The notes under the pieces are model-generated. The model was not told where the DNA came from. It was given only the letters and a program-made list of their open reading frames with translations, and searched no databases. Below are positions 35,250 to 62,158 of a DNA stretch of 64,000 nucleotides, one piece after another. Origin of the DNA: Saccostrea echinata (taxonomy: Eukaryota). The stretch is from NCBI RefSeq assembly GCF_033153115.1, contig NW_026889797.1, forward strand, positions 2,666,001-2,730,000. Direction: 5' to 3'. Numbering within the stretch: the stretch's first letter is position 1; each line of letters starts with the position of its first letter. The position numbers and the translations under genes are program-made.

Positions 35250-35574
35250 ACTCTGCTTACAATGCACCTCTCGGATAAAAAGAGAAGCAGCATCTTATAA
35301 CACTGCACATTAGAAAACAGCTGTTAATTTGATATTGAATGCTAAATTGGATCAGAATAGGGGAATTTTAATCATAGACACTGATGACTAAGTGGAAACA
35401 CTTCAAATGCAACATGTACTGTCAATGCATTTGCAGTTGCAGAGTAACAAAATTCCTTACATCATGGATAAGCTTGTCAGGCTTTTATTTATCACTGGAG
35501 TAAGTTAAAAATCTATATTTAACACATCTTTAAGAAATCTTATGTAAACTCAAGTAAAATATAAACTTTGCAAA

Positions 35575-35857
35575 TATAGCGTTTCTCTCTACTATATGCT
35601 ACTTATTACCTAAGCACGGTGACGGCGGAATAGAGACAACACTATGATAAAATACGCGATTTATTAGTGCCCGCTATATACTATATAATAACTACAAATA
35701 CAACAATGACGGAGCCGACAGAGACACATCTGCACTCTGCAGCAGACAACAGAAAAAGAGAGCGAGGATAGGTACACGTCACGGCAGGTGCGTGTCGTGT
35801 ACCACGTGGTTGGAAGTAGCAGGGCAATTCGTGCCCAGTACCTACAAGACCACCACA
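35575..35857 (-). repeat. 3' LTR (283 bp, TG..TA)
   Basis: Preceded on the minus strand by PPT AAAATGGGGAGGAG (35858-35871). Confidence 0.97.
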
Positions 35858-36450
35858 CTCCTCCCCATTTTGAAAAACGGCGTCCCAGCCCGTTACAATG
35901 GAACAAATTATAATGTACATAATAAAATATAATTAAATCGTAGCAGGGCCTAACACATTAAAACAATTATACATAATCAATTACACATTAATGTCCATAA
36001 TAACACTATAATATTAATAAAAATTAACAGTTAATATCACAGTTCACAGGATACATCACGTCAGTCTGGTCCTGGGCATCCCTCTTCCGAGTCCGCTCGG
36101 GTCCACCACTGGGTCCATCGTTGTCTCCCTCATCAGGTGGTCCTCCGGTGACATCTTCGGTCGGCACTTCCGGATCCGGATATCCGAGCCCAGGACAGAC
36201 ATGATATCTAACGTGATATCACGTTCGCGACTCCGTCGCGAACGACCTATCCTGGAACTGGCTCCAATACATCGTCCCTGGAACATCGGGGTAAATAAAT
36301 CGTCAGGAACATCACAAGTGGATCGATCATAAGATCAGGGCAATATCCCTTTATAATTAAAAAGATCTGCTTCCCTAGCAGTAAGAACAAACATATATAC
36401 AATCACGCTAGCAAACAGCTACACATGCTTCCGCACCCTTGCGGAATCCT

Positions 36451-37001
36451 AACCTAGGGATTGCTAACACTGACGGGACTGCATTCGGGGCAAGTATACT
36501 GAGGTACTGATTTAGCATAATCCTCACTTATACCCACACACCTGGGATGAAACTAGTCCCGGCAACTGTCGCACTGAACCATCAAACCTTTAGGGTTGGA
36601 TTGTAAGCATAAACAATACTGTCGGGTCTTAGCCCCCTTAGTGGCTCTAGGTCGTTTGGGCGATTTGGGTTTTTCTGACCTTTCCCTTACCCGTTTCCGG
36701 GTACTCAGATATGGACCTACTGTTTCTGATGGTTTAGGGCTGACTTTTGACTTAACCCTACTCCCCGGGTCCCCAGGACTTGACCCTGAGTCCGCGGTCA
36801 CCAGCGGTCTAACCACATCGCGCACAAGGGAACTATCCCCATCTCGGCTTACTGACTGTCCTGGCAACTTACTCTGATAAGTAACTAACCACTTGGGAAG
36901 TTGCCTGGCCTCACACCTCTTAAGCTTGTCAAGGTGCATGACTTTAACATCGCAACGAGATTTGACGACAAATATTGTATCAGATTTGGCTTCAATAATT
37001 A
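36451..37001 (-). pseudogene. Frameshifted integrase C-terminal extension ending in a PHD finger
   Basis: Removing one G from GGGGG at ~37002-37006 gives WKGPGVIIEAKSDTIFVVK..MHLDKLK..YCLCLQSNPKGLMVQCDSCRD*FHPRCVGISEDYAKSVPQYTCPEC (C4HC3; TAG at 36553 replaces Trp). Confidence 0.88.
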
Positions 37002-40000
37002 CCCCCAGGACCCTTCCAGATAGATTCTACCTTTTTTCCCGCATTGCGGCGCCAATACACCAAATCTCCGACCTTGAACCTATGGGTACGGATCTTAATG
37101 TCGTGCGACCTTTTCATTGCCTTCTGCGCGACCTTCAGTTTCTTGCGGGCAATGTCATGCGCGCTCTGCACATTCTGTTCCAGATCACGCACATACCTGT
37201 CAACCTCACCCTCCTCCCCATTTTGAAAAGACTGCGAAGGGGGTGGGGAAAACATTAAGGTTGCTAGTATGTTGACTTCTCTACCCAGCATTAGACGATT
37301 TGGAGTATATCCGGTGTGGCGATTCACCGCCGACCGCAATGCCCCAGCCAGTGGGCCCAAAAACCTATCCCATGTCTTGGGCTGACCATCGATATAGCAA
37401 CGGACCGCATCCATTAAGGTGCGGTTGTACCGTTCTACTTGGCCATTCCCGGAAGGTCTGTATGGCGTGGTCCGGGCCTTATGAATACCTAACATTGTAC
37501 AGATTTTACAGAAAAGCTCACTTTCAAAATTACGGCCCTGATCTGTAAAAATTTCATAAGGATAGCCCAATCGCGAAAAGAAATCATTGATGGCTGACCT
37601 GGTCGTAACCTCTGCTGTCCGAGATGGAAGCGGAATGCACTCGACCCACTTGGTAAAGTTATCTACCATCATGAGTATATACTCATTCCCGCTATCTGTT
37701 CGGGGTAGCGGCCCAAGGAAGTCTAAGTGCACTCTCTCCATCGGACTTCCGGCCTGGTAGCTTTTCATTTCCGATTTATTCGGCAGAGAACCCCTCTTAT
37801 TCCGTGCACAAATGTCGCATGTCTTGACATATAACTTAATGTCCTTGACCATCCGCCACCAATAGAACTGTTGTTTAAGTCTCTCTTTAGTTCTCTGTAT
37901 ACCTTGGTGACCGGACGACGGAATGTCATGACAAAAGTGCATGACCTCGGACCTGAGACTTCTCGGGACTAACAGTCTACGAGGCATGTCCGAGTCTTCC
38001 GGTTCTCGCCAAATAACACCTGTCTCGTCCAGTGTAAAACAGTCTCTCTCAAGAAGGTAACATTTCTCTTCCGGACTACAGATAATCAGGTCATTTTCAG
38101 TAGGTAAATCCCCAGACTCTAAGTACTGTCTCAGGTAAACCATGGCCTCATCTGAGTTCTGTTTACGAGCCATCTCTGCGGGACTGTAAGAGCATAGAGA
38201 AATTCCCGCAGTGTCACCCTGAGATACCTGACAAACTTGAGGCTTTACTTCCTCAATCTCGGGACTCAAACTCGACACCCCATTGACAGCGATTTCAAAA
38301 CTCGGAAGTTCAGGGGCACCTGCTGCCAACGGAACATCTTCCCAAGTATTTGTCACAATAGCCTGACGGAGAGTAGGATCTAACATCTCATAATTACCCC
38401 CTTCAGCGGACTGACCCTCCGCTCTAACAGGCGATTCCTCAAAGAGCTGGGAAAGAGGAATTACATCGTCAATTTCGGTATTAAAGTCATGCCAGCGCCC
38501 ATGTGCTCGGCGGCAGTACCTACATCCGCCACATGGCAAATCTTCGACTCTGATTTTAGTAGAGTAACTCTGGCATGTGTCTGGTATGTCTTTAGACAGC
38601 GCATCGGCATTCACGTGCTTCTTGCCTGGGCGATGGACTATCCGCATATTGTACTGGCTAAGCTCTTCTAACCAGCGAGCACTCTGATTCTGCGGATGCT
38701 TAAAGTTCATCAGCCAGACCAGGCTATGGTGGTCTGTCCGGACTGTGAACTCTCTGCCCAGCAGGTAATGGCGGAATTGTCTGGTAAACTTGATCACCGC
38801 CAATAATTCCTTTCTAGTAGTGCAATACCTGCGCTGTTCGGATGACAGCACGGCGCTGCCATACCCAATGGTTCGCTCCCTTCCATTCTGGACTTGGCTA
38901 AGTTCCCCGCCTACGGCATGATCCGAGGCGTCAGTATCCAGAATGAAATGACCTGTACTGTTTGGAATAGCAAGTACTGGGGGTTTGATCATTAATTGGA
39001 TGAGTTCCTCGAAGGCGCTTTGTTGTTCAGCCCCCCACCGGAAACCACTCTTTCCCGTAACCGCGTACAGCGGAGCCGCAATTCTCGAGAACTGGGGAAT
39101 GAAACTACGGTGATAGTTAGCGAAGCCTAAGAAACGCTCAACGCCCTTCACATCGCAAGGAACAGGCCAGTCACGTACTGCCTCAATGTACTGATCCCCC
39201 ATCTCAACTCCGTGCTCGCTCACGGTTCTACCTAGGAACTCAACTTTAGGTTTAAATAGCTCGCATTTCCGAGGCTTAAACTTAAGACCATATGCTCGGA
39301 ATCGCTCAAACACTTGTCTCAGATTATCAAGGTGAGCATGTGCTGAAGCCCCCAATACTAAGACATCATCGAGAAAAGCTAATGCAATTTTCCAGTTAAG
39401 TCTGTGCAATACCAGATTGATGGCCCTAGCGAAGGTCGCGGGGGCATTACACAGACCGAACCCCATTCTTGTGAATTCGAATAGTCCGTATTTGGTAATA
39501 AAGGCTGTCTTTTTCCGGTCTTCCGGAGCTATTTTAATTTGCCAATAGGCCGCATTGGCGTCCAGTTTAGAAAACCAGCGGTTTCCCGCTAGCGTGTCCA
39601 TGCACTCTTCGATGAGCGGTAGGGGGTACGTGTCCTTGACTGTCACCTTATTCAGGGCTCTGTAGTCCACGCACCAGCGGACACTACCATCCTTCTTCCT
39701 AACTAGGACCGGGGCAGACGCCCAGTCTGAAGAAGATGGCTGGATAACTCCGGCCTCTAACATTCTGTCTAGATGACCCTCTTCCTCCCCCTGGAACACA
39801 GAAGGAGTGCGGCGCATCCGCTGATTTACGGGAAGTGCATCGCCAGTATCTATACGATGCTCTATCTCGGAAAAATTTCCGAGGTCAAGGTCATCTACAG
39901 CAAAGACATCAGCAAATTCTTTAACTAGCTCTACAGCCTGAGTCTTCACTTCCACAGGCGCACTCTTACCTAACTGATCTAGGAGTGGGGCTATGTGTTT

Positions 40001-40282
40001 ATAACTAGTCTCCCCCTCCGCTGACATGCGGCGCACTGTGGGATCAGTATTCTTAACAGCCATAGCAGGAGCAGCTTCCCCTACTGTAGTACCAGTCTTG
40101 ATTATATGACTTCTATCAGTCAGGTTTAAGATACATAGCTTAGCTTTGTTTCCTGCGGCATTGTATGTCCGCGAAGCTACTATACCAGGCGGAAATATGC
40201 TAGCTGGTTCCAGCATAAATTCTGGCATATCGGAACTAAGGGTGCACTCGATAACTTGAGCAGTGTGCGGAGGGACCCGCAC
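36992..40282 (-). CDS. pol: Gypsy Pol (RT, RNase H, integrase)
   Basis: RT (WASAPVLVRKKDG..CVDYR, FGLCNAPATF, FLDD), RNase H (DTDASD, KELLAV, TDH), integrase HHCC and DDE (HLDFLGP, TDQG, VERYN). Confidence 0.96.
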   Translation of the reverse strand: MRVPPHTAQVIECTLSSDMPEFMLEPASIFPPGIVASRTYNAAGNKAKLCILNLTDRSHIIKTGTTVGEAAPAMAVKNTDPTVRRMSAEGETSYKHIAPLLDQLGKSAPVEVKTQAVELVKEFADVFAVDDLDLGNFSEIEHRIDTGDALPVNQRMRRTPSVFQGEEEGHLDRMLEAGVIQPSSSDWASAPVLVRKKDGSVRWCVDYRALNKVTVKDTYPLPLIEECMDTLAGNRWFSKLDANAAYWQIKIAPEDRKKTAFITKYGLFEFTRMGFGLCNAPATFARAINLVLHRLNWKIALAFLDDVLVLGASAHAHLDNLRQVFERFRAYGLKFKPRKCELFKPKVEFLGRTVSEHGVEMGDQYIEAVRDWPVPCDVKGVERFLGFANYHRSFIPQFSRIAAPLYAVTGKSGFRWGAEQQSAFEELIQLMIKPPVLAIPNSTGHFILDTDASDHAVGGELSQVQNGRERTIGYGSAVLSSEQRRYCTTRKELLAVIKFTRQFRHYLLGREFTVRTDHHSLVWLMNFKHPQNQSARWLEELSQYNMRIVHRPGKKHVNADALSKDIPDTCQSYSTKIRVEDLPCGGCRYCRRAHGRWHDFNTEIDDVIPLSQLFEESPVRAEGQSAEGGNYEMLDPTLRQAIVTNTWEDVPLAAGAPELPSFEIAVNGVSSLSPEIEEVKPQVCQVSQGDTAGISLCSYSPAEMARKQNSDEAMVYLRQYLESGDLPTENDLIICSPEEKCYLLERDCFTLDETGVIWREPEDSDMPRRLLVPRSLRSEVMHFCHDIPSSGHQGIQRTKERLKQQFYWWRMVKDIKLYVKTCDICARNKRGSLPNKSEMKSYQAGSPMERVHLDFLGPLPRTDSGNEYILMMVDNFTKWVECIPLPSRTAEVTTRSAINDFFSRLGYPYEIFTDQGRNFESELFCKICTMLGIHKARTTPYRPSGNGQVERYNRTLMDAVRCYIDGQPKTWDRFLGPLAGALRSAVNRHTGYTPNRLMLGREVNILATLMFSPPPSQSFQNGEEGEVDRYVRDLEQNVQSAHDIARKKLKVAQKAMKRSHDIKIRTHRFKVGDLVYWRRNAGKKVESIWKGPGGNY

Positions 40283-40467
40283 TCTGCGGACTGAACCGCA
40301 TCGAGTACTGGCACTGTCTCATCAGCACTTAGGGCGAAAATCGTATCTATGCCCTTGACCCTTAATGTACCGGCTTCACAGGAAACATCTGCACCGTGTG
40401 CACGCAGGAAGTCAATTCCCAAAAGCATTTCGTCTTGTAAGGGGCCAAAAAAATCGGGTGAACAAAA

Positions 40468-42894
40468 TCATAATCCCCGATGCGAAGATTTAAACTTCCG
40501 AGGTACTGGGCGGTCATACCAGCCCCCTCGCCTGACATTAGTGTCCCTAACAATATCGGGCTGCGGCCTCAATGACTTGTACACCTCCCCCGATATTATC
40601 GTGATGTCAGCTGCAGTATCTATTGTCGCTTTAATTTGCTGGCCTCCTATTTGTATAGGGATTCGCCACGCACCTGGGCCTATACTTTGACTACCTGACC
40701 TTATAGAGGGAATAACATAAGTGGCCTTGACATTTGGAGTAACAGAAAAGGTCACCCTATTAGCACTTGACGAACGCTCCCTAGACTTAGTCTCGGTAGA
40801 TTTTTTCAGACACGAGCACAGGGACTCTGGGTTGCTCCTACGCGGACAATTCCGCCGTATGTGTCCCGGTTCTTTGCATTCATAACAAACTACTGTCCCT
40901 GAACTCTTTGAGCGTCCTTGACTCGCTGATTTCCCCCTTACAGGTTTACGAGTTGGGCTTCGGCCCCTACTTCTCTCCCTAGAGTCGTGAGTGGTACCAG
41001 TTTTCCGGTCCTCTGACTTATCTCGGCATTCGGAGTCCGAGACCTTACGTCGGTGAGCAGGGGGCGAGCGAGAATCTCTCCGCCCTTCACGGTCCCGCTC
41101 TGAGGAAACGGACCTCACAGCACGTGGGCGACGAACCACTGCCCGGCGGCTTAACTGGTAATGTTTTACTCTTTTTATTGCCTCCGCTAGAGTACATGGG
41201 GGATTGTTGATCAACTGTTGACCCGCCTCACCATCACTGCAGCCAAGAGCAAATCTAACAATGAGCTGCTCCTGGAATATTTCTGGCGAGGTTCCGCCAC
41301 CAAAGGCCTTCTGGGCAGTGTCCATGACTCTATCTGCCCATTGTTCCATGGTTTCTTCTGGCTTTTGGACAATCGAGCTGAATTCCAGCTGTGAGGCTGC
41401 TCTTAAGGAACTTTTCCCAAACCTCTCCTCCATTCGGACGACAACTTCTCGGAAACTTAACAGGGCCCCCCTGCGACGCAGGATATCGAAGTACTTGAGC
41501 GCTGCCCCCTCTAATGTCAAACTTAGGGCAAACAGACGATCGGGGTCACCCCACTGATGGTATTCAGCGATAGTAGAGAACTTTGAATAGAATGGTCCCC
41601 ACTCTACATCCCCATTGTACTTCATCCACTTTATTTCAGCTGGAATATTCCTGCTCACGCTACTCCGAGTACCAGGAGGAATTAAACTCGGAAATTGGGA
41701 TGTATCCGCAGTAGTCATTAAAGTGTGACCTTGAGGTACCCAAGACCAACCCCCTATTCCAGGTACAAATGACTGTCCTCCCTCTAGTGCCGCCGACTGC
41801 CCAACCAACCCACCATAGTAGCCAGAGCCCTGACTACCCAAGTTAGCTGCACTAGAATACACAGATGCAGTGGGTGCGGTAACTGGCATGCCCATACCCC
41901 CAGCAACATGACCCGGGACGGGTGGGCCCATGCTGGGATGTATAGGATACCCCCCACTCATTGTGTTCCCTGATATGAACGAGCCAAATGTAATAGTACT
42001 CGGCAAGGCCGAGCCAAGACTACTGTAGCCTATTGAAGAAAGTGGCTGACCTTGAGATGCGGAAACAGACGTGACCTCAGAATTATGGATAGAAACGGGT
42101 CCGGGACTCGACAAACTAGCTACGGGCTGCTCAACGGAAAGGCACTGCTCTGGCAATGAGCTAGGAACCCAGGGACTCCCCTGGCTACTAGTCATTACAG
42201 ACGGACTGGCAGTGACCTTGAGATCCTGCGGTTTAGCTACTGACTGCGGTTTATCAAATTTCATCATTCCCGCAAGCATTTGAGTTATTTCGCTTAACTG
42301 AGTCCCCATATTTGATTCCATAGAACCCATTTGAGACGTCATGTCGGTTTTCAATGTCCCCATCTGAGATGTCACATCGGTTCTAAGAGTCCCCATCTGA
42401 GATGTAACATTGGCTTCTAATGAGCCTATATCGCCTCGCAGAGCTCCTACATCCCGACCAAGGCTATCTACTCTGCTATTAACCGCACCAAGGTCGCCCT
42501 TAACTTGTATAATATTTCCTTGAATTTGACCCATTTCCCCTTGAATTCGGTCAACGACCCCCTCCAGAATAGTCTGTCGTTCCTGGAGCAGGGAATAAAA
42601 CTGCTGGAAACCGGGCGTCTCCAAAGACCCATCAGAATCAGCCCCCCGTGTAAGCGACATGTCTCCGCCCCCATACCGGGTGACATCCGGGGCACCCTCC
42701 CCCTGGGGCATCGGTGTGCTACACACACCCGGAGCAAACCTCACGGTTCCGGAAGGCGGGACTTCCCGCGGCCTGCGCCCTCCCGGGGTACTCCCCAGAC
42801 CCTCGTGGTCATTTCCCCCAACACGAGCGTCCCAGTCCCCACTAGGCCTCACAGTCCCCCTCCCCAAACCAAAGGAACTGAAATCACGGTCCAT
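40468..42894 (-). CDS. gag: Gypsy Gag plus N-terminal half of aspartic protease
   Basis: Coiled-coil region, capsid-like region (KYNGDVEWGPFYSKF...QKPEETMEQWADRV), CCHC knuckle CYECKEPGHIRRNC, protease motif IDTAADITII; frameshifts after ~40530. Confidence 0.9.
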   Translation of the reverse strand: MDRDFSSFGLGRGTVRPSGDWDARVGGNDHEGLGSTPGGRRPREVPPSGTVRFAPGVCSTPMPQGEGAPDVTRYGGGDMSLTRGADSDGSLETPGFQQFYSLLQERQTILEGVVDRIQGEMGQIQGNIIQVKGDLGAVNSRVDSLGRDVGALRGDIGSLEANVTSQMGTLRTDVTSQMGTLKTDMTSQMGSMESNMGTQLSEITQMLAGMMKFDKPQSVAKPQDLKVTASPSVMTSSQGSPWVPSSLPEQCLSVEQPVASLSSPGPVSIHNSEVTSVSASQGQPLSSIGYSSLGSALPSTITFGSFISGNTMSGGYPIHPSMGPPVPGHVAGGMGMPVTAPTASVYSSAANLGSQGSGYYGGLVGQSAALEGGQSFVPGIGGWSWVPQGHTLMTTADTSQFPSLIPPGTRSSVSRNIPAEIKWMKYNGDVEWGPFYSKFSTIAEYHQWGDPDRLFALSLTLEGAALKYFDILRRRGALLSFREVVVRMEERFGKSSLRAASQLEFSSIVQKPEETMEQWADRVMDTAQKAFGGGTSPEIFQEQLIVRFALGCSDGEAGQQLINNPPCTLAEAIKRVKHYQLSRRAVVRRPRAVRSVSSERDREGRRDSRSPPAHRRKVSDSECRDKSEDRKTGTTHDSRERSRGRSPTRKPVRGKSASQGRSKSSGTVVCYECKEPGHIRRNCPRRSNPESLCSCLKKSTETKSRERSSSANRVTFSVTPNVKATYVIPSIRSGSQSIGPGAWRIPIQIGGQQIKATIDTAADITIISGEVYKSLRPQPDIVRDTNVRRGGWYDRPVPRKFKSSHRGL

Positions 42895-43093
42895 TATGCC
42901 CGGCAACCAATAACACGGCAAAATATAAATTTACAGGAAGCGGTTAATCCGCTAAGCAACAAACGCAAGTATAAACGTATATACAAAATAAAATAAAACA
43001 AATACTGCTGTCCTACATCTCGGAAAATATCCAAGATGGCGACGTGCACTTACACGTGCGGGCTAGGTATTACCCCGCAGTTTAAACTAAAAT

Positions 43094-43111
43094 ACCCTGC
43101 TCGCAGAGCCA
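43094..43111 (-). promoter_or_regulatory. Primer-binding site, probably tRNA-Ser(UGA)
   Basis: TGGCTCTGCGAGCAGGGT one nt inside the 5' LTR; its complement ACCCTGCTCGC..GCCA resembles the 3' end of metazoan tRNA-Ser(UGA). Confidence 0.75.
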
Positions 43112-43112
43112 A

Positions 43113-43405
43113 TATAGCGTTTCTCTCTACTATATGCTACTTATTACCTAAGCACAGTGACGGCGGAATAGAGACAACACTATGATAAAATACGCGATTT
43201 ATTAGTGCCCGCTATATACTATATAATAACTACAAATACAACAATGACGGAGCCGACAGAGACACGTCTGCACTCGTCTGCACTTTGCAGCAGACAACAG
43301 AAAAAGAGAGCGAGGATAGGTACACGTCACGGCAGGTGCGTGTCGTGTACCACGTGGTTGGAGGTAGCAGGGCAATTCTTGCCCAGTACCTTCAAGACCA
43401 CCACA
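43113..43405 (-). repeat. 5' LTR (293 bp, TG..TA)
   Basis: Direct repeat of 35575-35857 with an extra 10-bp tandem duplication GTCTGCACT(C/T). Confidence 0.97.
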
Positions 43406-44095
43406 CAAATGTCTTTAATAACATTTTTTCTGGAATTTTAAGCGCGTGTCACTATGAATTCATTCGGTTATTTTCCTTAATTTTGAACCACTATAGTCAT
43501 TTGTATATGAAATCATATTTGCTTGATCACACAATAAAATAGCAAGCACTTATAACATATTAATTTATAATTTATTAATTTATTATTTAATTTCTTTCTC
43601 TCGGCATGGCAGCTTACAGCATTCAGCCCACTCATAATTTACCTGCATTGTTACTATATAGCTAAGTCAAAACAAATGACACCATTCAGATAAAATTAAT
43701 CAACGAACATAACATGAAGAATTTCTAGATCTGACATTTCCTCTAAATGCAGATAAAATAAACAACTCCTCCATAATTACCTGGTCTAGGGATACCCATC
43801 ATTCTAAAGTATAAAGGTTCAGGACTGGTTGCTAGAAATTGATTGGCATTTAATTCATAGTATACGTGCATACCTTGTATATCTCTAGATACCTTGTCTC
43901 TATCTCGTGTCCATCGTCAAATGAACGTTCGGTCTTTTGGTGATTACCGCATATACCAGTTCGACAAAGACACTTTTTCATTCGAAACATTTTGGCAAGG
44001 TAAAATAAAACTAAATGTATTATTTAAAAATATTTTCTTTAAGGACTGGTGATACATGAACAAACAAAATTTGATAAAAAATTTTTGAAAATAAC

Positions 44096-45154: not shown

Positions 45155-48100
45155 TATAGCGTTTCTCGCTATAATGGCCGTGATGGCAATCAGAAAAATC
45201 ACCATGATTATAAAATTTGTGGTCCCGATGAATAACTGTGGGGCTCTGCTCTGCTATGCAAATATACCATCCCAGCCCAAGAAGGCTCTCCTTCTACTGA
45301 AACTCCTCTCCCGGCGGGAGGAAACTCTCCTGTCATATCCGGTCTCTACCTCTGCTTTCCACAAGAACAGAATTCCCTTCCGAAAGTCCCAGCCGAAACC
45401 TCCGGTTCCACTTCACTCTTATCCCTGATTTCTTCTCCTGCGGATCTTCCGCCCTCGAATACAAATTCACCTATTTCCTTAGACATGATCTGTAACCTTG
45501 AAAAACAGGTAAAATATCAGACATGCGCTTTTTAATATATTCATGTGCAAATACAATCTAACCAGATGCAAACCTTATCTTATACTTGCACATGCTCCCG
45601 CATCATTGCAGGACCCTTATCCAATAATCTAATGACGGCTGGCACTGATGGGAATGCATTCGGGGCAAGTATAGTGAAGAAACGACTTAGCATAGGCCTC
45701 ACTTATACCCAAACACCCAGGATGAAACCAGTCCCGGCAGCTGTCGCACTGTAACATCCACTTTTTAAGGTTAGACTTTAAACAAACACAATCATCTCTA
45801 GCCTTAGTGGCTGTAAGTCTCTTGGGCGTACTGAGAGTATCTGGCTTACTTCACCTTTCCCTCACTCGTTTTCGGGTACCCACGTTAGGACCCACTTGTT
45901 CTGCTGGCTGCGGGTCTCCTCTAGTTTTCCACATTCTCCCCGGGTCCCCAGGACCCGACCCTGAACTTGTAGCACCCAGCGGCTTAGCTATGTCGTATAC
46001 AGAAGAATTACTGTAAACCGATTTTTATTCGAGTGCGAAAAATATCCGGTTTCGCGGCCTACTTTAACTCCAAATATTAATCGCCGCGAACCATTTATTT
46101 GTATTTGTAGAGAATGTTTCCTTTGTCGCGCAAGAAATAAGAGATTATGCGAATAATAGTTGGTTTACAGTACCCCGGTCGCTGTATGCGGATTCTCCCG
46201 ACAACTTACTCTTAAACGATACTAGCCTTTTCGGGACTTGCATCTTTTTAGCTGGGGAAGAAAACTGCGATTTAGTTAGCGAAGCCAAGAAAAAGTTCAA
46301 CACCCTTCACCTAGCAAGGTACAGACCAGTCATGCACTGCCTCAATGTACTGGGCCTCCACCTCGACTCCGTGCTCTCTAAGGGTTCTGCCTAAGAACCC
46401 AACTTCAGTTTTGAACAGCTCACAATTCAGAAGTTTTGAATTTGAGAACATACGCTCGGAATCGCAGGTTATCAAGGTGAGCATGTGATAAAGCCACTAG
46501 CACTAAAACATCGTCGAGGAATGCCAAAGCAATCTTCCAGTTTAGCATGTGTAATACCAGATTGATGGCTCAAACAAAGGTCACGGAGGCATTACATAGA
46601 CTAACCCCATTCTCGTTAATTCGAAGGCCGTATTTTGTAATGGAGGCCGTTTTTTTTTCGGTCTACCGGAGCTATCTTAATTTGCCAATAAACCGCATTG
46701 GCATTTGCATCGGCATCCAGCTTGGAGAACGTACAGCTATTCCCCGCTAGAGTAGCCATGCACTCTTCGATGATCAGTAGGGGGTATGCTATTTAACGGG
46801 AAATGCGTCGCTAGTATTTATCCGATGCTCGATCTCGGAGAATTTTCCGAAGTCAAGGTCCTCTACAGTAAAGCTGTCTGGAAATTATTTAACTAGCACG
46901 AAAGTCTGAGTTTTGACCTCTACAGGCACATTCTTCCCTAATTGATAGAGAAGTAGGGTTATATGCTTATTACTCCTCTCCCCCTCTATGACATTCGGCG
47001 CACTGTGGGGTCGGTACACTTAACAGACACAGCAGCTTGGCCTACTTTAGTACTAGACTTGATGACTCCTATCAGCCATGTTTAGAATACACAGTTTGGC
47101 CTTCTCTCCTGTGGCAGTTTACATGTATGTCTGCGAAGGCATTATCCCAGACCTCAAAACACCGGCAGGTTCCAGCATAAACGCTAGCATTTCCGCACTA
47201 AGGGCGCACACGATAACGTGGGCAGTGTGCGGAGGGACCTGCACTATGCGGACTGAAACCACATCGAGTACTGGCACTGTCGCTTCAGCGCTCAGGGAAA
47301 AGTTGTCTATGCCCTTGATCCCTAGCATTCCCGCTACACATGAAACTTCGGCACCATATGCATGCAAGAAATCAATCCCTGATAGAAGTCTTGTAAAGTT
47401 CAACATAAATTGGGTGTATAAAATCGTAATCACCGATACGTAGTTTAGTTTTCCGAGGTACTAGGCGGTTATTCCTGCCCCCTTGCCAGCTATCCTAACA
47501 GTGGTGCTCTAAGACCTCGGGCTGAGGCCTCAATGGCTTATATACCACCCCAAGATTATCGTAATGTCGGCTGCAGTGTCCATTGTTGCTTTACCTGGCT
47601 GACCACCTATCTGTATAGGGATACGCCACGCACCTGAACTCATGCCTTGACTACTTGACCTGACTGATGTTTTACTTTAGTCGCATTTACATTCGGTTCA
47701 TAAAACTTGACTCTGGTGTCGGAGTCTGACGCACGACGTTCAAATTTTGCATTACTGTCAGTACTGTGTCCTGACATTTGTAACGGTCTACTGACCTTGA
47801 AACACGAGAATGTCTTCGACTCAATGACTTGTCCCGTACGGGACTGCGTATGTGACTGTAGCCCCTACTGCTGTCACCCGAGTCACTGCAGTAGTGATAC
47901 TGCCTGTCTGAGGCCCGATCCCGTGACTTGACACGGGACCTCTATCTTAGGGCACACAGGATCGCTCAGGTTTCCTCGGATCAGTGCATTCCCTACGATC
48001 ATTACGTTCCCTTTGCTCAACGTAAAATTTTTGAGAATCAAAATCCAAGTTCTGTCTGTAAGGACTTTGAGACAGAGATATACTGTAGTCATCTCCGCGA

Positions 48101-48460
48101 TATCTAGACACGGATCTTATGCCCCTGGGAGGACGGGTAACAGCTCGGCGACAAAGCTGATAGGCCAATCATCGCTTAATCGCCTCTTCCAGTTTACCAG
48201 GAGGATTATTAATTACCTGCTGCCCTGCCCCGCCCCGCCATCACTCCACCCAAGAGCAGAAAGAACTATTTCCTGCTCTTGAAAAATCTCTGGTGAGGTC
48301 TTTATGGCCACTGTCCATAACTCTGTCCCCCCATTGCTCTATGGCCTTGTCGGCTCCCTGGCAAATGGAATTAAATTCCAGCTATAAGGCGGTTCTCAGA
48401 GAAGTCTTACCAATCCTCTCCTCCATCCGGAGAACTACCTCCCGAAATCTTAACAGAACC
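45155..48460 (-). mobile_element. Decayed, internally deleted and 5'-truncated sister Gypsy element
   Basis: Same LTR terminus TATAGCGTTTCTC; colinear homology to PHD (45650-45770), RT (46270-46790), protease (47050-47660) and gag (48050-48460); RNase H and integrase deleted. Confidence 0.92.
46011..46170. mobile_element. TA-flanked MITE nested in the decayed Gypsy
   Basis: TA|CTGTAAACC ... GGTTTACAG|TA; Gypsy homology resumes across it. Confidence 0.85.
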
Positions 48461-48499
48461 GCAGCTAGGTTAAGGACTTCCATGAGGTTGAGCTCATGA

Positions 48500-48880
48500 A
48501 TATCACGTGACTTAGCTCCGCCCATTTTCATAATTATTCATGTGAAAACTTTATTCCGTGTTGAATTTTTATTTATTTATTTATCTATACTTTAAAGATT
48601 TGTTTTTGTGTTGTTTCTAATAAATTTTATTTGTTTATTTCGTTTTCATCGCTAAATCAGCTCTATAAACGTATTTTCTATGAAATTACCGAATGTCGTT
48701 TGGAGCTGATCTACGTCGGCTCGGCGCTTTCACCCTCTCGATACGATTGTCAACCCCGTGGCTGGCAGGTGCGTGGGAAAAGTTTGTCTGTTCCAGTGTC
48801 TTGATGGAATTTACAACAAAATTGTTGCCTGGCTTGATGGCAGATGCCGAGAATTTGCTGGACAGAGTGTTATTGTAAGT
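48500..48880 (+). promoter_or_regulatory. Putative promoter and first exon of a + strand transcript
   Basis: E-box CACGTG, GC-box CCGCCC, TATAAA at ~48664, GC-richer segment ending in donor ATT|GTAAGT at 48874/48875; coding status unclear. Confidence 0.4.
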
Positions 48881-56700: not shown

Positions 56701-59700
56701 GTATCCTCTGGTAGTTTAAATTCAATTTTATTCAAATCATATAAAGGATATGCAGTGTCACGCTCATATTTAATCAGAAGTATTTCATGTGATAAACAGT
56801 TGAGATTGTGTTAAGTTTGAAAAAATACTTTCATGGATTAACTGCATAAATAGATTTAGAAAAACTATTAACCTGTTTTCTTAACTTCACTTTTCAGTTT
56901 TGTGTCTATATCAGGAGTTGGAGCTGATTCCTGTTTTTCTGATACACACCCCTTGATCCGTGCTTCCCCCGTGCCATGTGGAGCATCTTGAAGGCACACT
57001 TAAGAAATCATCCAAAAAAAATCAATGAGTATATGTTTGATATAAAAGAAAAACAGAAGTGTTCAGTAGATGTATGGGATATTTTAGGGGGAAATAAATT
57101 GCAAAATATTTTACAAGTACAGTGTGATCTCACAATTTCAAATCAACTTTTGGTAAGAAAATGGGAAGACCTTATCTTTAACATCAGTTGTTGTTTTAAA
57201 GACTTTCAGAAAGGTTTATTTTTTTGGTTGGTTTTTATTCATTTCATATTAACTTTGTAGAACTACCTGAATTCTGAGTGTCACTTGTGCTTTGAACTAC
57301 ATTTGGATATGAAATCAGCTCCTGCTGCAGTGATCCTGCATCAATGGATGGACCACCTTCATCAGTATGTGTCTCCATTATGATTTTAGAAATCTCTGCA
57401 ATGTATATAAATAGTTCATACATAAACATGTACCTGTGGAAATGGTATATACTTTAGGAGTCATACTCATACTTGTCACAAAAATGGCATTTGGGCAAGT
57501 TCAAGGTAACTGACAGAAAAAAATGCTAATTTTGTATAATTACTTTAGATGTAGTTTACTTATAAAGTGTGTGGTAAGCTACGGCATTCAACTGAGCAAT
57601 GAATCATTAGTATTTAAAAATATAGTATCGTAAATGCAACAGTGTGTGTAATCAAATTGAATATCGTGCATTAGCGTGTTATGAAAATTTGTTTCATGAA
57701 CCATTGCAGTTACAAGACTATATCTTTCAAAAAGTAATGATTCATTGCTAATATTTACTTTTTTTTTAATTCTCTGCCTTGACTGCAAATGTGATTTATA
57801 TTTCAAAACTATGTATTATCCTTTGTGTAAGCTACTATTAATGGAAGAACCAATGTAACAGTTTCTGGTCAATGTGAGCGTGAATTTTGATTTCCGTTTT
57901 TGACGTTCTACTTCCTCGGTATTCAAGGTTTGTGATGTCAAAATAAAATGCATGCTTAAACCTTTTGACCCCTTTACATGAATGCCATATATTTTCACAC
58001 ACTTTATATGCAAAATTACAAGGGGGAAATCTGGTGAAGAACAGCAGGGCCAAAGCAACTCTGGTAAGGCACATGGGCTTCTTGCTTCATGAACTAACAT
58101 GGATGAGCATGAATATCTCCATTGTTAAGTCATAATTACCGTACTTGATGTCAAAACTGTAGTGCAAACTTTTTTGCTTTGAAAATGACAGTTGAATGGT
58201 GTAATTTGTGGCAACTCATCAGAATAATGTAGATATAAAAATTGAATTGAATTTTTGAAAATTCATTAGGTACATGAACTACGACGCTTCTCGCTGGCAA
58301 ATTTACCATTAAGCGCTAACACACTTCACGAAATATGCCGATGTGAAGCACCATAGTTCATGTCCTCATGAATCTTCAAAAATTAAATTAATTTCTTAAA
58401 TAACTGCAACATTGTGTGCAAATAAATTGAATAATGCATGTAGGGCTTTATGAATTTTCAATATTCATTGATTCATTGCTTAGGTCAGATTCATGTTTGT
58501 AAGAGAGGAACTTTGAGAATATGTTGATGTAAAGTTGTTGCTTTTGTAGAAATACCTGTTTCCTGATCTGCTTCTGCATGGAGAGCTCCAGCCGAATTGC
58601 CCAAGGACACTGCTTCTTTTCTTCTGTCTGGTGCACACTCTTGGATTGCTCTTGTGGGGGAAACTCCAGTGGAATGACCCAAAGCCATTTCTCCATTGCT
58701 TCTGCCTGATGCCCACTCCTGGTTTTGTGATTTTTCTGAGACAGTTGATGCGATTCGAATGAATGCTGAAAAAAGATTGAAATATTTAATGAAGTCAAGT
58801 TACTTCCAGGCAAAGGATATTCACAGTATACATGTATTCAAGTAAAGTCATAAAGGGGTAAAAATTAACAGTAATTAAGCAATAACATTTCAGTGAAAAT
58901 TGCCTAAGTTTTACTGTAAAATATGTAGTAATGCAGAATTTATCTTTTTTTTTTTTTTTAATTTTATGTTAATTGATTTTTTCTTGTATTGAAAAAATTT
59001 AAGTATATGTACCTTCATTCTTATAAGTCCTACATAGTTGTCCCTCCTCATGTATTTTGATTTTGTTCAGTGGTAAGCTGAGTTTTGATGCTTCACAATC
59101 CTGAACACACTTCTTCCAATCTTCTGCCAGGAGTCTTTGCTGGTCCTTGTCTGACAAAGACCGAAAGTGGCGTAAGGGAGGGTATGTATGAAAATCTGGC
59201 TCTTCAGGCCCATCATGGAACATAACTGCACCCTCATGTAAGGACCACCACATGTTCTCTCCACCATACATAAAATCCGAGATTCTCTGGTAGTGGACTT
59301 GAAAGAGGGTTGGTCTCTTCATTATGAAATCAAGATCAAATTTTGTATTTTCTGACTTAGGCAAGAGTTTTGCCTGGTGACTGACAATGGATTCTTGATG
59401 TTTAAGGTAGTCTTTCTTGGTCTCGTCCATCTGTTGAGCATTGTACCGTAAAACTGCGTTGTCAATAACCTTTCCACATTGTCTGTTAGCTGTATTTAAT
59501 GAGATACTCCTTAAGTCGCCAAATGATCTTTCCTCTTGCTCAGGGACTAAGGATCTAAGGCAGAACAATCTATATGTTTCAGGACAATGGACTGTTAAAC
59601 TGTGAAAGTGGCTGCCAAAGAACTTTCTGGTGGTCATCTTCTTTGGTATTCCAATGACAGTTTTTGAAAGGATGGAGAATTTAAAGCAAAGGTTGTATAA

Positions 59701-62158
59701 TCGCAGTACTTTCTTTGTTGTTCTCTGCTGGTATTCACTGTAACATATAGAAATGATTTCCACTAAAGTCATACAGAGTTCAGAAATTTCTTTGCTGATT
59801 TTTTTCTCTAAAAATTTTAGATGGGTAAACATGGCTAGCTTGACTGCAAACAGACGGGCATCGGATCCCTTGAGCTGATTTTTGTCCCCAATGGTTGAAG
59901 TAGCAAATTTTTCAAATTCTTTTTGTGTTGTTAAATTACCAATATGGCAGGGTAGTTCCAATATCAAATTTTGTACAATGTTGGTGATGTCGTGAAGAGG
60001 CTCGCAGGGTGGTATCTCATATAGGTGGAGCAAATCAGAAATATTGTTGTCGGTTGTCAGTAGTGCTGGTGGTCTCTGGATACCTCTAAGAATTGTTGTA
60101 AGTTCTTCCTGCATCTCACTTTTGCTTTTATTATGGATGTCATGGCCTCTTGCTTTTAATTCTACTTCAAGGTCTGACTTTTTGAGATTAGAAAAAGGGG
60201 ATGGGTTTATGACTGAAAATCTTCTCCATAGTTCTCCTTCTTTGAATATCTGCACCCGATCATCTAAGGAAGGATTCCCAATACTGTAAACATATTCTAA
60301 ATTTTGATGTTCTTTTGACCTTACTCCACACAGGCAGCTGTAATTCCCACCCCTTTGATGCCCTGCTTCAAATTGTCTAGCAGGGCCATCCCCACTAAAA
60401 ACTCTTGGCATATAACTGATTTCCCCTTTCTGCATTCTTAAATTTTGAAGGTCTCCAACCCTAGCCTGCATATATGAAAGCTGGTCAATATCCGAACTTG
60501 ATGATTGTCCAAGTATATATAGATATGGCCTCTCCACCTTTCCTTGTATGTCCACAGGGGGGCGCTCGGGAAACCTTTTCATGTACTCTTCATCAGTTAG
60601 GAAATTGGCATTATCATAGAGGGTACTGATCATAACGGTGAAGTAGCTGTGATTTAGTATGTCGGAGTGATCATGCCAAATTTTTAGATGTCTTGATTTC
60701 TCCAACTTGAGCAGCTTTTCCTTTGCTTCTTCATCTGAGCCTGGCATTTCTTCTCCAAGATTCTTAAAAATTGTCTTCAGATCATTCGATGTTAAAGTAG
60801 CTACTTCGGTATTTCTCTGATAGTCTTGATGATTGTCTAGCATGGCATCCATAATATTTTTTAAAGGAATCATTCTACCATACACTGTCATCTCCTTGTC
60901 AATAAGTCTTCCATTTTCATCTATTTTGTTTGTTTTGTAGATTTTAGGAGCAATTCTCTCTCCAATGTACAGTTCCTTTCTCCCTAGTTTGCTGTGAATT
61001 TCTTCTCTCAGTGCTCTAGCAGGTCTGGGGGTGGGTACAGAAACTTTACGAAAAACTTTTTGCCTTGCCCTGCGAACTCTCTGGAGAAAGTCCCGACCAC
61101 TTACCCGTCGATCTGTATTAAATTGTTTACAGTTGACACCATTTAATTTTGCAAAAATCTGAAGAACCTGACCTGCATTCTTTGGAATTATCCCTCGTTT
61201 GTTTTTTACCTGAAACTTGAGGGCAAGATACCTCCAGATGACCCTAGACCCTGGTGCCAAATTTCTAATAAATTTGAGGAATTTTTCTCTGTCGAACTGG
61301 TAATTATCTATGTTTCCAATATGCCTCTTGGCCTTCTTTGTCCCTTGTAAAATTTTTTTAGAATTGTCTGTTATTCTCTTTCTGGCAACATTTGGTGCTT
61401 CAAAGAAGGTAGATAACCTGTCTCGGTCAGCTTGGCTATATGATTTTCCAGAGGCAAGAAAATTTTGAATTTCATTTTCGTTGTTTCCTATAAGCTGACT
61501 TATAGATTTTGTGCTTTCTCTTGTGATTTTGATTTTATGTTTTCGTTTTTGTTCACTTGTGTTCTTCTCAATCAAGTTAAATTTTTTTGATACTGTTGAC
61601 TTCAAATCTGTGTTGAATTTTTTTTTCATGATAGGTTCTAACACATTGAGAAGTTGTTCTGCTCCATTACTGTTATTATGAGTCATTTCACTAACAAGTT
61701 CATTTGTTTTTTTAACCAAATTTTCTGCATTTTCTGAGGTAGAATTGTGTAATACTGAGTAATTGATCAGTGAGGTTTCACAAGGCATACAGTCATGTAC
61801 AGTATGCCTCTGTTTGTCATGGTGAGAAAGGGCATCCCATTGTTGGAGTGAAAATTTTGCTATGAAATCTTTTTTTTTCACTACCTTTATTGTTGTTTTT
61901 CCAGTACTTATTTTGTGTGATATAATTTTGAACTCGTGGTAATTGACGTACAAATTTGTCATAGGGCAAATGCATCTTTGGGTATTTGTTCATTACACTA
62001 TTGTAGAAATGAAATCTAAATGATGCAGATACATTTGACGATTTCTTATTGGTATCAGAATCAAGCAGTGTAGCATCTTTTGAAGACCACCAATGAATAC
62101 TTTCAGGATCTTTACTGCTACGCCCAATGATGACTTTGGCAAAATTGCAAAAATTCAT
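53790..62158 (-). CDS. RAG1/Transib-like DDE transposase-derived gene, 7 coding exons, ~1332 aa (one frameshift)
   Basis: Exons 62158-59013, 58765-58556, 57395-57267, 56998-56873, 54548-54477, 54215-54162, 54052-53790. All introns are GT-AG and phase 1, internal exons are multiples of 3 and stop-free. One extra A in the A9 run at 61870-61878 separates the 113-aa and 987-aa ORFs. Confidence 0.75.
54774..55204. mobile_element. CAGGG-terminus MITE with ACTCGCAA/TTGCGAGT subterminal repeats
   Basis: CATATA|CAGGGTTCGAAAT ... GTTTCTATCCCTG|CATATA (6-bp flanking direct repeat). Confidence 0.78.
55795..56608. mobile_element. CAGGG-terminus MITE, 7-bp TSD (P-element-like)
   Basis: GATGATC|CAGGGTTGGAAA ... 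TTTCCAACCCTG|GATGATC. Confidence 0.88.
58242..58392. repeat. Imperfect long palindrome
   Basis: AATTTTTGAA.ATTCAT.AGG.ACATGAACTA..GCTTC ... GAAGC..TAGTTCATGTCCTCATGAAT.TTCAAAAATT. Confidence 0.8.
59013..62158 (-). CDS. Giant exon encoding the RAG1/Transib-like catalytic core with SAP-like helices
   Basis: KIWHDHS (D 60672), FSGDGPARQFEAG..GGNYSCLC (D 60390), CEPLHD, HFHSLTVHCPE, PEQEERSF (E 59532); SAP-like FSNLKKSDLEVELKARG..KSEMQEEL; N-terminal HxxxxCxxC. Confidence 0.8.

Follow-up and report, generated by a model that had tools for sequence, protein, structure and literature searches.

The locus considered here raises the question of why a retrotransposon should carry a histone reader at the end of its integrase. 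In a stretch of 64,000 nucleotides from the oyster Saccostrea echinata (hereafter the window), a preliminary description recognized a Gypsy integrase ending in a PHD finger, and proposed that the finger reads H3K4me3 and steers insertion to active chromatin. Few mechanisms are known by which retrotransposons select their insertion sites, and a histone reader encoded by the element itself is one of them. The tested case, that of chromodomains, points to silent chromatin, and a clade whose H3K4me3-type reader is conserved allows the opposite strategy to be tested in a natural setting.

The host is a full-length Gypsy LTR element running on the minus strand from 43405 to 35575 (Table 1). Gag (with one zinc knuckle), protease, RT, RNase H and integrase follow one another in the Ty3/Gypsy order, and the two LTRs, primer-binding site (PBS), polypurine tract (PPT) and target-site duplication (TSD) of that structural type are all present. 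The LTRs are 283–293 bases long with a mutual identity of 95–97%, and their termini are TG...TA, not the canonical TG...CA: 28 of 30 LTR matches of the window family (family A) end in CTATA. Those of family B are likewise TG...TA, and those of families C, E and F end in CA; TG...CA termini are a common trait of Gypsy elements, not a strictly defining one. A 5-bp TSD was rejected, as solo LTRs show 4 bp. The 4-bp TSDs of family B lean to RTAN, with T at position 2 in 12 of 15. Of the named relatives among the matches listed, the nearest comes from Saccostrea cucullata (93% identity over RT/RNase H). The same insertion, with its flanks and its stop codon, lies on contig C32 (there with the tail frame unbroken), and the region is therefore present twice in the assembly; element, flanks and sister copy recur at G000:C32:7314519-7324923, as a haplotype duplicate or a segmental duplication. 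Cysteines are conserved between RNase H and integrase (about 38480–38590, minus strand) in the motif C-x~12-LPCGGCxYCxRAH, which probably binds zinc as an additional site in the wider lineage; its CxxCxxC is found in 76 of 78 PHD-bearing relatives and 27 of 47 relatives without a PHD, and this spacer matches no Pfam family. Elsewhere in the window, an intronless ORF of 996 residues (58999–61989, minus strand) gives no Pfam match and by eye is of transposase type.

Table 1. Features of the PHD-bearing Gypsy element and its sister copy (positions in the window).
Feature	Position	Strand	Evidence or remark
Target-site duplication, left copy, 4 bp	35571–35574	.	identical 4 bases at 43406–43409; 4-bp TSDs also flank family solo LTRs
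3' LTR, TG...TA ends	35575–35857	-	95–97% identity to 5' LTR
Polypurine tract	35858–35873	-	sequence; also adjoins 3' LTRs of other family copies
PHD finger (C4HC3), stop at 36553–36555	36481–36618	-	PF00628 E=7.2e-10; PDB matches of sister copy's finger
Low-complexity linker including basic stretch 36646–36699, family-specific	36619–36885	-	
Integrase C-terminal domain end, frame unlike Pol's in window copy	36886–37026	-	
Pol ORF: RT, RNase H, Cys-rich spacer, integrase H2C2 and core	36992–40318	-	PF00078, PF17917, PF17919, PF17921, PF00665
Gag (one CCHC knuckle) and protease start	40468–42930	-	PF00098 E=1.7e-5; weak sub-cut-off PF03732, PF13975
Primer-binding site, begins TGG	43094–43111	-	sequence; kept behind 5' LTRs of other copies
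5' LTR	43113–43405	-	LTR comparison
Target-site duplication, right copy, 4 bp	43406–43409	.	matches left copy
PHD finger of decayed, internally deleted sister element (about 45600–48500)	45635–45790	-	PF00628 E=1.3e-10; blocks 72–82% identical

Six-frame translation yields the finger as YCLC-x8-MVQCDSCRD-stop-FHPRCVG-x11-YTCPEC on the minus strand, preceded by the basic stretch. Both fingers in the window carry the C4HC3 ligands and exceed the PF00628 cut-off of 24 bits, at 39.2 bits in the full-length copy (stop read as X) and 41.5 bits in the sister; the profile search that had been proposed thus confirms a PHD behind the integrase C-terminal domain and a basic linker. It also stands in place of a chromodomain, as described, since no chromodomain family, the mark of chromoviruses, is matched in the window tail or in the Pfam lists of relatives. 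The Trp written in brackets in the originally quoted motif fares differently: a TAG codon (36553–36555) interrupts the finger and the cage Trp is not encoded, so that this residue was a guess for the window copy, and it holds in other copies, with Trp at this position in 23 of 30 loci of the same genome. In the sister element, Trp is retained as had been claimed and Met is also present, and the Tyr before the first Cys is absent. The frame of the tail (36457–37026) differs from that of Pol (36992–40318), with the break located within 36992–37026. The window copy of this Gypsy LTR-retrotransposon is dead.

Sister copies in the same genome show that the PHD finger is fused to the integrase. The search of this genome gave at least 42 DNA matches; 40 of 61 candidates were scored and 30 loci were fetched. 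A single open frame from the integrase core through a complete finger is found at six of the 30; a seventh is in frame, yet carries the same stop, and the remainder are broken or without the motif. Open frames of more than 2,000 residues span this region in copies of the window family and of a second family. The earlier concern that finger and Pol might not share a frame is answered by these natural copies. Two more PHD-bearing families reside in the genome, namely B (finger in 19 of 20 loci) and C. Loci L012–L019 differ from the reference copy at silent sites by about 0.5 in the PHD and by about 0.1 in the integrase, which suggests recombination of the 3' end between subfamilies.

The finger is also widespread beyond this genome. 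A query of integrase plus finger finds PF00628 in 116 of the 120 matches listed; this ranking favours PHDs, and relatives were therefore re-ranked by RT/RNase H alone. Among the 120 matches listed in that ranking, 49 stop short of the integrase tail and 71 reach it; 65 of these 71 carry a PHD, and two of the other six break off at the PHD start. The PHD, first proposed as a clade feature from two copies, is by this RT-based comparison a feature far beyond them, and its named hosts are bivalves, abalone and sea urchin (Saccostrea, Pinctada, Mytilus, Haliotis, Lytechinus). The trait is confined to a sub-branch, because only 19 of the best 150 representatives at 50% identity carry a PHD (106 reach the tail without one and 25 are cut).

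In an integrase tree (FastTree, 244 rows), a single branch of 150 rows (support 0.998) unites 141 of the 142 PHD rows with nine rows without a scored PHD; at least four of the nine (P0115, P0126, P0286, P0330) end at the PHD start. In an IQ-TREE run of 68 rows, the core group has 99% support, and P0142 and P0219 are placed apart. Strict monophyly of all PHD rows, as read from an initial tree, was discarded as unstable, P0219 lying outside in the tree that followed. An AU test on a subset of 32 rows does not reject a single PHD clade (p=0.63); seven rows were left out of this subset, namely five from within the clade that are non-PHD, one on a long branch, and the sister of P0142, whose placement is weak. 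One old capture of the PHD is the simplest reading of these phylogenies, not a proven one. P0219, a single record, ends in an ING-type PHD (E=2e-14 to ING3) at the same integrase-end position, which would represent either a replacement or a second capture. In P0023, a Tpt1/KptA RNA 2'-phosphotransferase domain (residues 1065–1234, E=4e-43) is present between integrase and PHD, and P0300 also lists PF01885. Many of the sister integrases without a PHD end in an acidic tail bearing a motif that resembles TRxGRxxxxP (10 of 27 by pattern, compared with 1 of 148 PHD linkers); the PHD may have taken the place of this tail, possibly another kind of chromatin anchor.

PHD fingers and histone H3 are a textbook pair. 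The best PDB matches of the sister finger (E 6e-13 to 1e-8) are EBS/SHL, PHF8/PHF2, CXXC1, BPTF, DIDO and Spp1, all of which are taken here to be H3K4me3-type readers, and the finger of a second family has PDB matches to E=6e-16. When aligned to BPTF, PHF2, PHF8, CXXC1 and EBS, the finger has fitting residues at the aromatic, Met and Trp positions, the columns that presumably form the cage of these proteins. Among 148 fingers, Tyr or Phe precedes the first Cys in 142, Met is found in 146 and Trp in 147, with the zinc ligands in 146–148 and Asp after the third Cys in 123; the Tyr/Met/Trp cage claimed for the window copy is thus kept across the clade and is incomplete in that copy itself, where no Trp is encoded. 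Passages on PHF13 describe binding of K4me3 through an aromatic/Met/Trp cage (PMC4915813). The profile score and the nearest PDB matches support the assignment to C4HC3 PHDs of the H3K4me3-reader type, and on homology and conservation the finger very probably binds methylated H3K4 tails (H3K4me2/3). A single-sequence fold of the finger gives a low-confidence model (pLDDT 56), which was set aside. In the window family, Asn occupies a site near the cage where most fingers have Asp, Trp or Tyr, and Pro follows the His ligand; affinity in this family may differ, because the surroundings of the cage depart from the clade pattern.

Pairwise codon counts against a single natural sister copy as reference (pairs not independent) give pN/pS values of 0.11 for the PHD (28 pairs), 0.22 for the integrase (29) and 0.54 for the linker (27), and one subfamily has 11–15 silent vs 2–3 replacement changes in the finger. 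The finger is under purifying selection and, judged from its codons, was functional while the family replicated. The linker before it has a clade median of 20 aa and a net charge of −1, vs 92 aa and +12 in the window family, so that the basic linker is specific to this family and is no trait of the clade. The linker of family B (L091–L110) contains RKRGRPRK, presumably an AT-hook-like motif, which is absent from 148 database linkers.

According to the proposed mechanism, the PHD finger at the integrase end would bind methylated H3K4 tails, the bound finger would tether the integration complex to nucleosomes in chromatin of the active, promoter type, and the tether would bias the landing sites of new copies. 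Binding together with tethering is the best explanation at hand, with about an even chance of being right, and the bias in landing sites would follow by analogy with chromoviruses, RAG2 and the retargeting by ING2-PHD-LEDGF. In the last case, passages of the source report that an ING2 PHD fused to the integrase-binding domain of LEDGF redirected HIV-1 integration to TSSs (PMC8149907). The ING-type PHD of P0219 is likewise counted in favour of this explanation, as it would put another type of H3K4me3 reader in the same position. A bolder version, held tentatively and somewhat doubtful, is that molluscs and echinoderms share an old, undescribed Gypsy clade that mirrors the chromoviruses and whose integrase would read H3K4me3 directly and insert at active promoters, a related lineage having adopted an ING-type reader for the same job. 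If true, this would be the first natural retroelement to target H3K4me3 by its own reader and not by a host cofactor.

CpG content can stand in only weakly for H3K4me3 in oysters. Flank sequence (CpG o/e, promoter motifs and tRNA genes) served as the proxy for targeting at 28 family A sites, 18 family B sites and 40 random 10-kb regions (200 windows); seven internal or duplicated flanks, three duplicated loci (families C and E) and LTR matches below 85% identity had been dropped beforehand, and one duplicate pair (L161/L163) remained among the 28. Within 500 bases, CpG o/e is 0.77 in family A, 0.93 in family B and 0.68 in random regions. In family B, which is young and PHD-bearing, the value of 0.93 at 0–500 bp compares with 0.65 at 3–4.5 kb (n=18, paired p=2e-5), a result drawn from a scan of seven windows by four features. 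Family A has no local CpG rise (0.77 proximal vs 0.76 at 1–1.5 kb, n=28), and in a pre-set test the flanks of the PHD-bearing family C (0.69, n=6) are near the random value, which does not replicate the signal of family B. Non-PHD families together give 0.71 (n=22; E 0.48, n=8; F 0.83, n=10; G 0.84, n=4), and flank CpG o/e does not differ between PHD and non-PHD families (p=0.27). With family B alone positive and the replication failed, flank CpG o/e was rejected as a sign of promoter targeting. The flanks are not enriched in promoter motifs (a set taken from general knowledge) or in tRNA genes (three in 324 kb vs six in 400 kb of control), and clustering at contig ends is not significant (13 of 58 sites within 1 Mb vs 7.1 expected, KS p=0.11). 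A repeat of about 160 bases, arranged in tandem, surrounds one family C copy (L241/L242) and is also present in the flank of the family B copy L107.

Steering to active chromatin, the central proposal of the preliminary description, finds no consistent support in the flank proxy, which is positive in family B and negative in A and C. What the flanks show speaks against strict promoter targeting by family A, yet would be compatible with a modest bias; the tests are limited because numbers are small, surviving insertions have been filtered by selection and CpG is a weak proxy. Any bias in the window family is likely to be modest, or blurred by selection after insertion.

A conserved cage alongside the lack of a consistent flank signal would also fit a finger that binds H3K4me but serves as a gate or general chromatin anchor, holding the complex on chromatin or relieving self-inhibition of strand transfer with no marked site preference. 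Such a role has a parallel in RAG2, whose PHD, in passages of PMC12337333, inhibits target capture until a long H3K4me3 peptide relieves the inhibition 22-fold. However, the PHD of RAG2 is a different, non-transposon addition and family B does have a local CpG rise, and this role is considered unlikely. It is distinctly improbable that the finger acts outside target choice, by reading chromatin on its own LTR or on unintegrated DNA, or by recognizing a host cofactor by its methyl-lysine or H3-like motif, and so aids nuclear retention or avoids silencing. The window family has no targeting signature in its flanks, and PHDs of other retroelements have been proposed, in passages of PMC9940879, to act in chromatin remodelling, but the finger lies at the integrase C-terminus, a median of five residues from the protein end, which is the position of the chromovirus targeting domain in the relevant passage of PMC6673714. 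That the finger is a captured host fragment riding along without function, as damage to both window copies and the nine rows without a scored PHD inside the clade might suggest, is highly improbable and largely refuted by a near-invariant cage in 148 proteins and a pN/pS below that of the integrase itself, and at least four of those nine rows break off where the PHD starts.

Tethering of the integration complex through methylated H3K4 thus remains the preferred reading, and PHD-bearing and PHD-less sister families are found side by side in one oyster genome. The clade further accounts for gene models like the one named 'COMPASS component SPP1' in Mytilus; that protein is an integrase carrying a PHD. 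Other additions occur in this genome. In the PHD-bearing family C, pol and the 3' LTR are separated by an additional ORF (L244:486-2066, plus strand) with a metallo-beta-lactamase fold (PF00753, E=3e-14), which LTR elements do not usually carry as cargo, and in the non-PHD family F an extra ORF after pol (L250:655-1863, plus strand; also L247/L248) has a TatD DNase domain (PF01026, E=9e-12).

No account of this PHD-bearing Gypsy clade of animals came up in the literature search, which did not extend to subscription journals or Repbase reports. The main text of the KnitGypsy-Dnmt3 paper (PMC5890265) is without 'PHD', and PMC3286476, PMC4255032 and PMC5408684 have PHD only in a gene name or in references. 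That a PHD lineage might be the counterpart of chromoviruses is a less novel idea, already voiced for other transposons in passages of PMC6673714, where chromodomain targeting and PHDs in retrotransposons are mentioned together, and of PMC9940879. The finger is real, selected and clade-wide, and apparently undescribed in animals; it is a variant of a known theme. Mollusc Gypsy clades from the same hosts (C-clade, MolGy1-16) were defined by RT/RNase H (Thomas-Bulle et al., 2018; PMC6238403), and the PHD clade is probably one of them; the main text of that paper is without 'PHD' and its supplement 1 holds names only, without sequences.

Among known systems, Gypsy-7a_cRei of Chlamydomonas reinhardtii likewise has a Gypsy Gag-Pol with a PHD finger, and passages of its description suggest targeted insertion (intergenic, 2.6-fold; PMC9940879); it belongs to a green alga, and a figure legend lists the PHD before the integrase, whereas in the oyster clade the PHD is the last domain. 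In Hydra, Ginger1-9_HM likewise combines an animal Gypsy-like integrase with a C-terminal PHD, but in the relevant excerpt it is a DNA transposon with TIRs, one family of a table, with the PHD behind a Ulp1 domain (PMC2836005); the oyster elements form a clade of LTR retrotransposons, with the PHD directly after the integrase. In the RAG2 PHD and ING2-PHD-LEDGF, as passages of the sources indicate, an H3K4me3-reading PHD joined to a DDE enzyme changes where or whether the enzyme acts (PMC12337333; PMC8149907); the former is on a separate subunit and the latter is an artificial fusion, and neither is encoded by a retrotransposon. There is also a likeness in architecture to chromoviruses, which in passages of PMC6673714 share the Gypsy domain order and a small histone-reader domain behind the integrase C-terminal domain. 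Targeting is demonstrated in chromoviruses and proposed by analogy in the oyster clade, and the reader is a chromodomain in the former and a PHD in the latter, of a type that would point to an active mark instead of heterochromatin.
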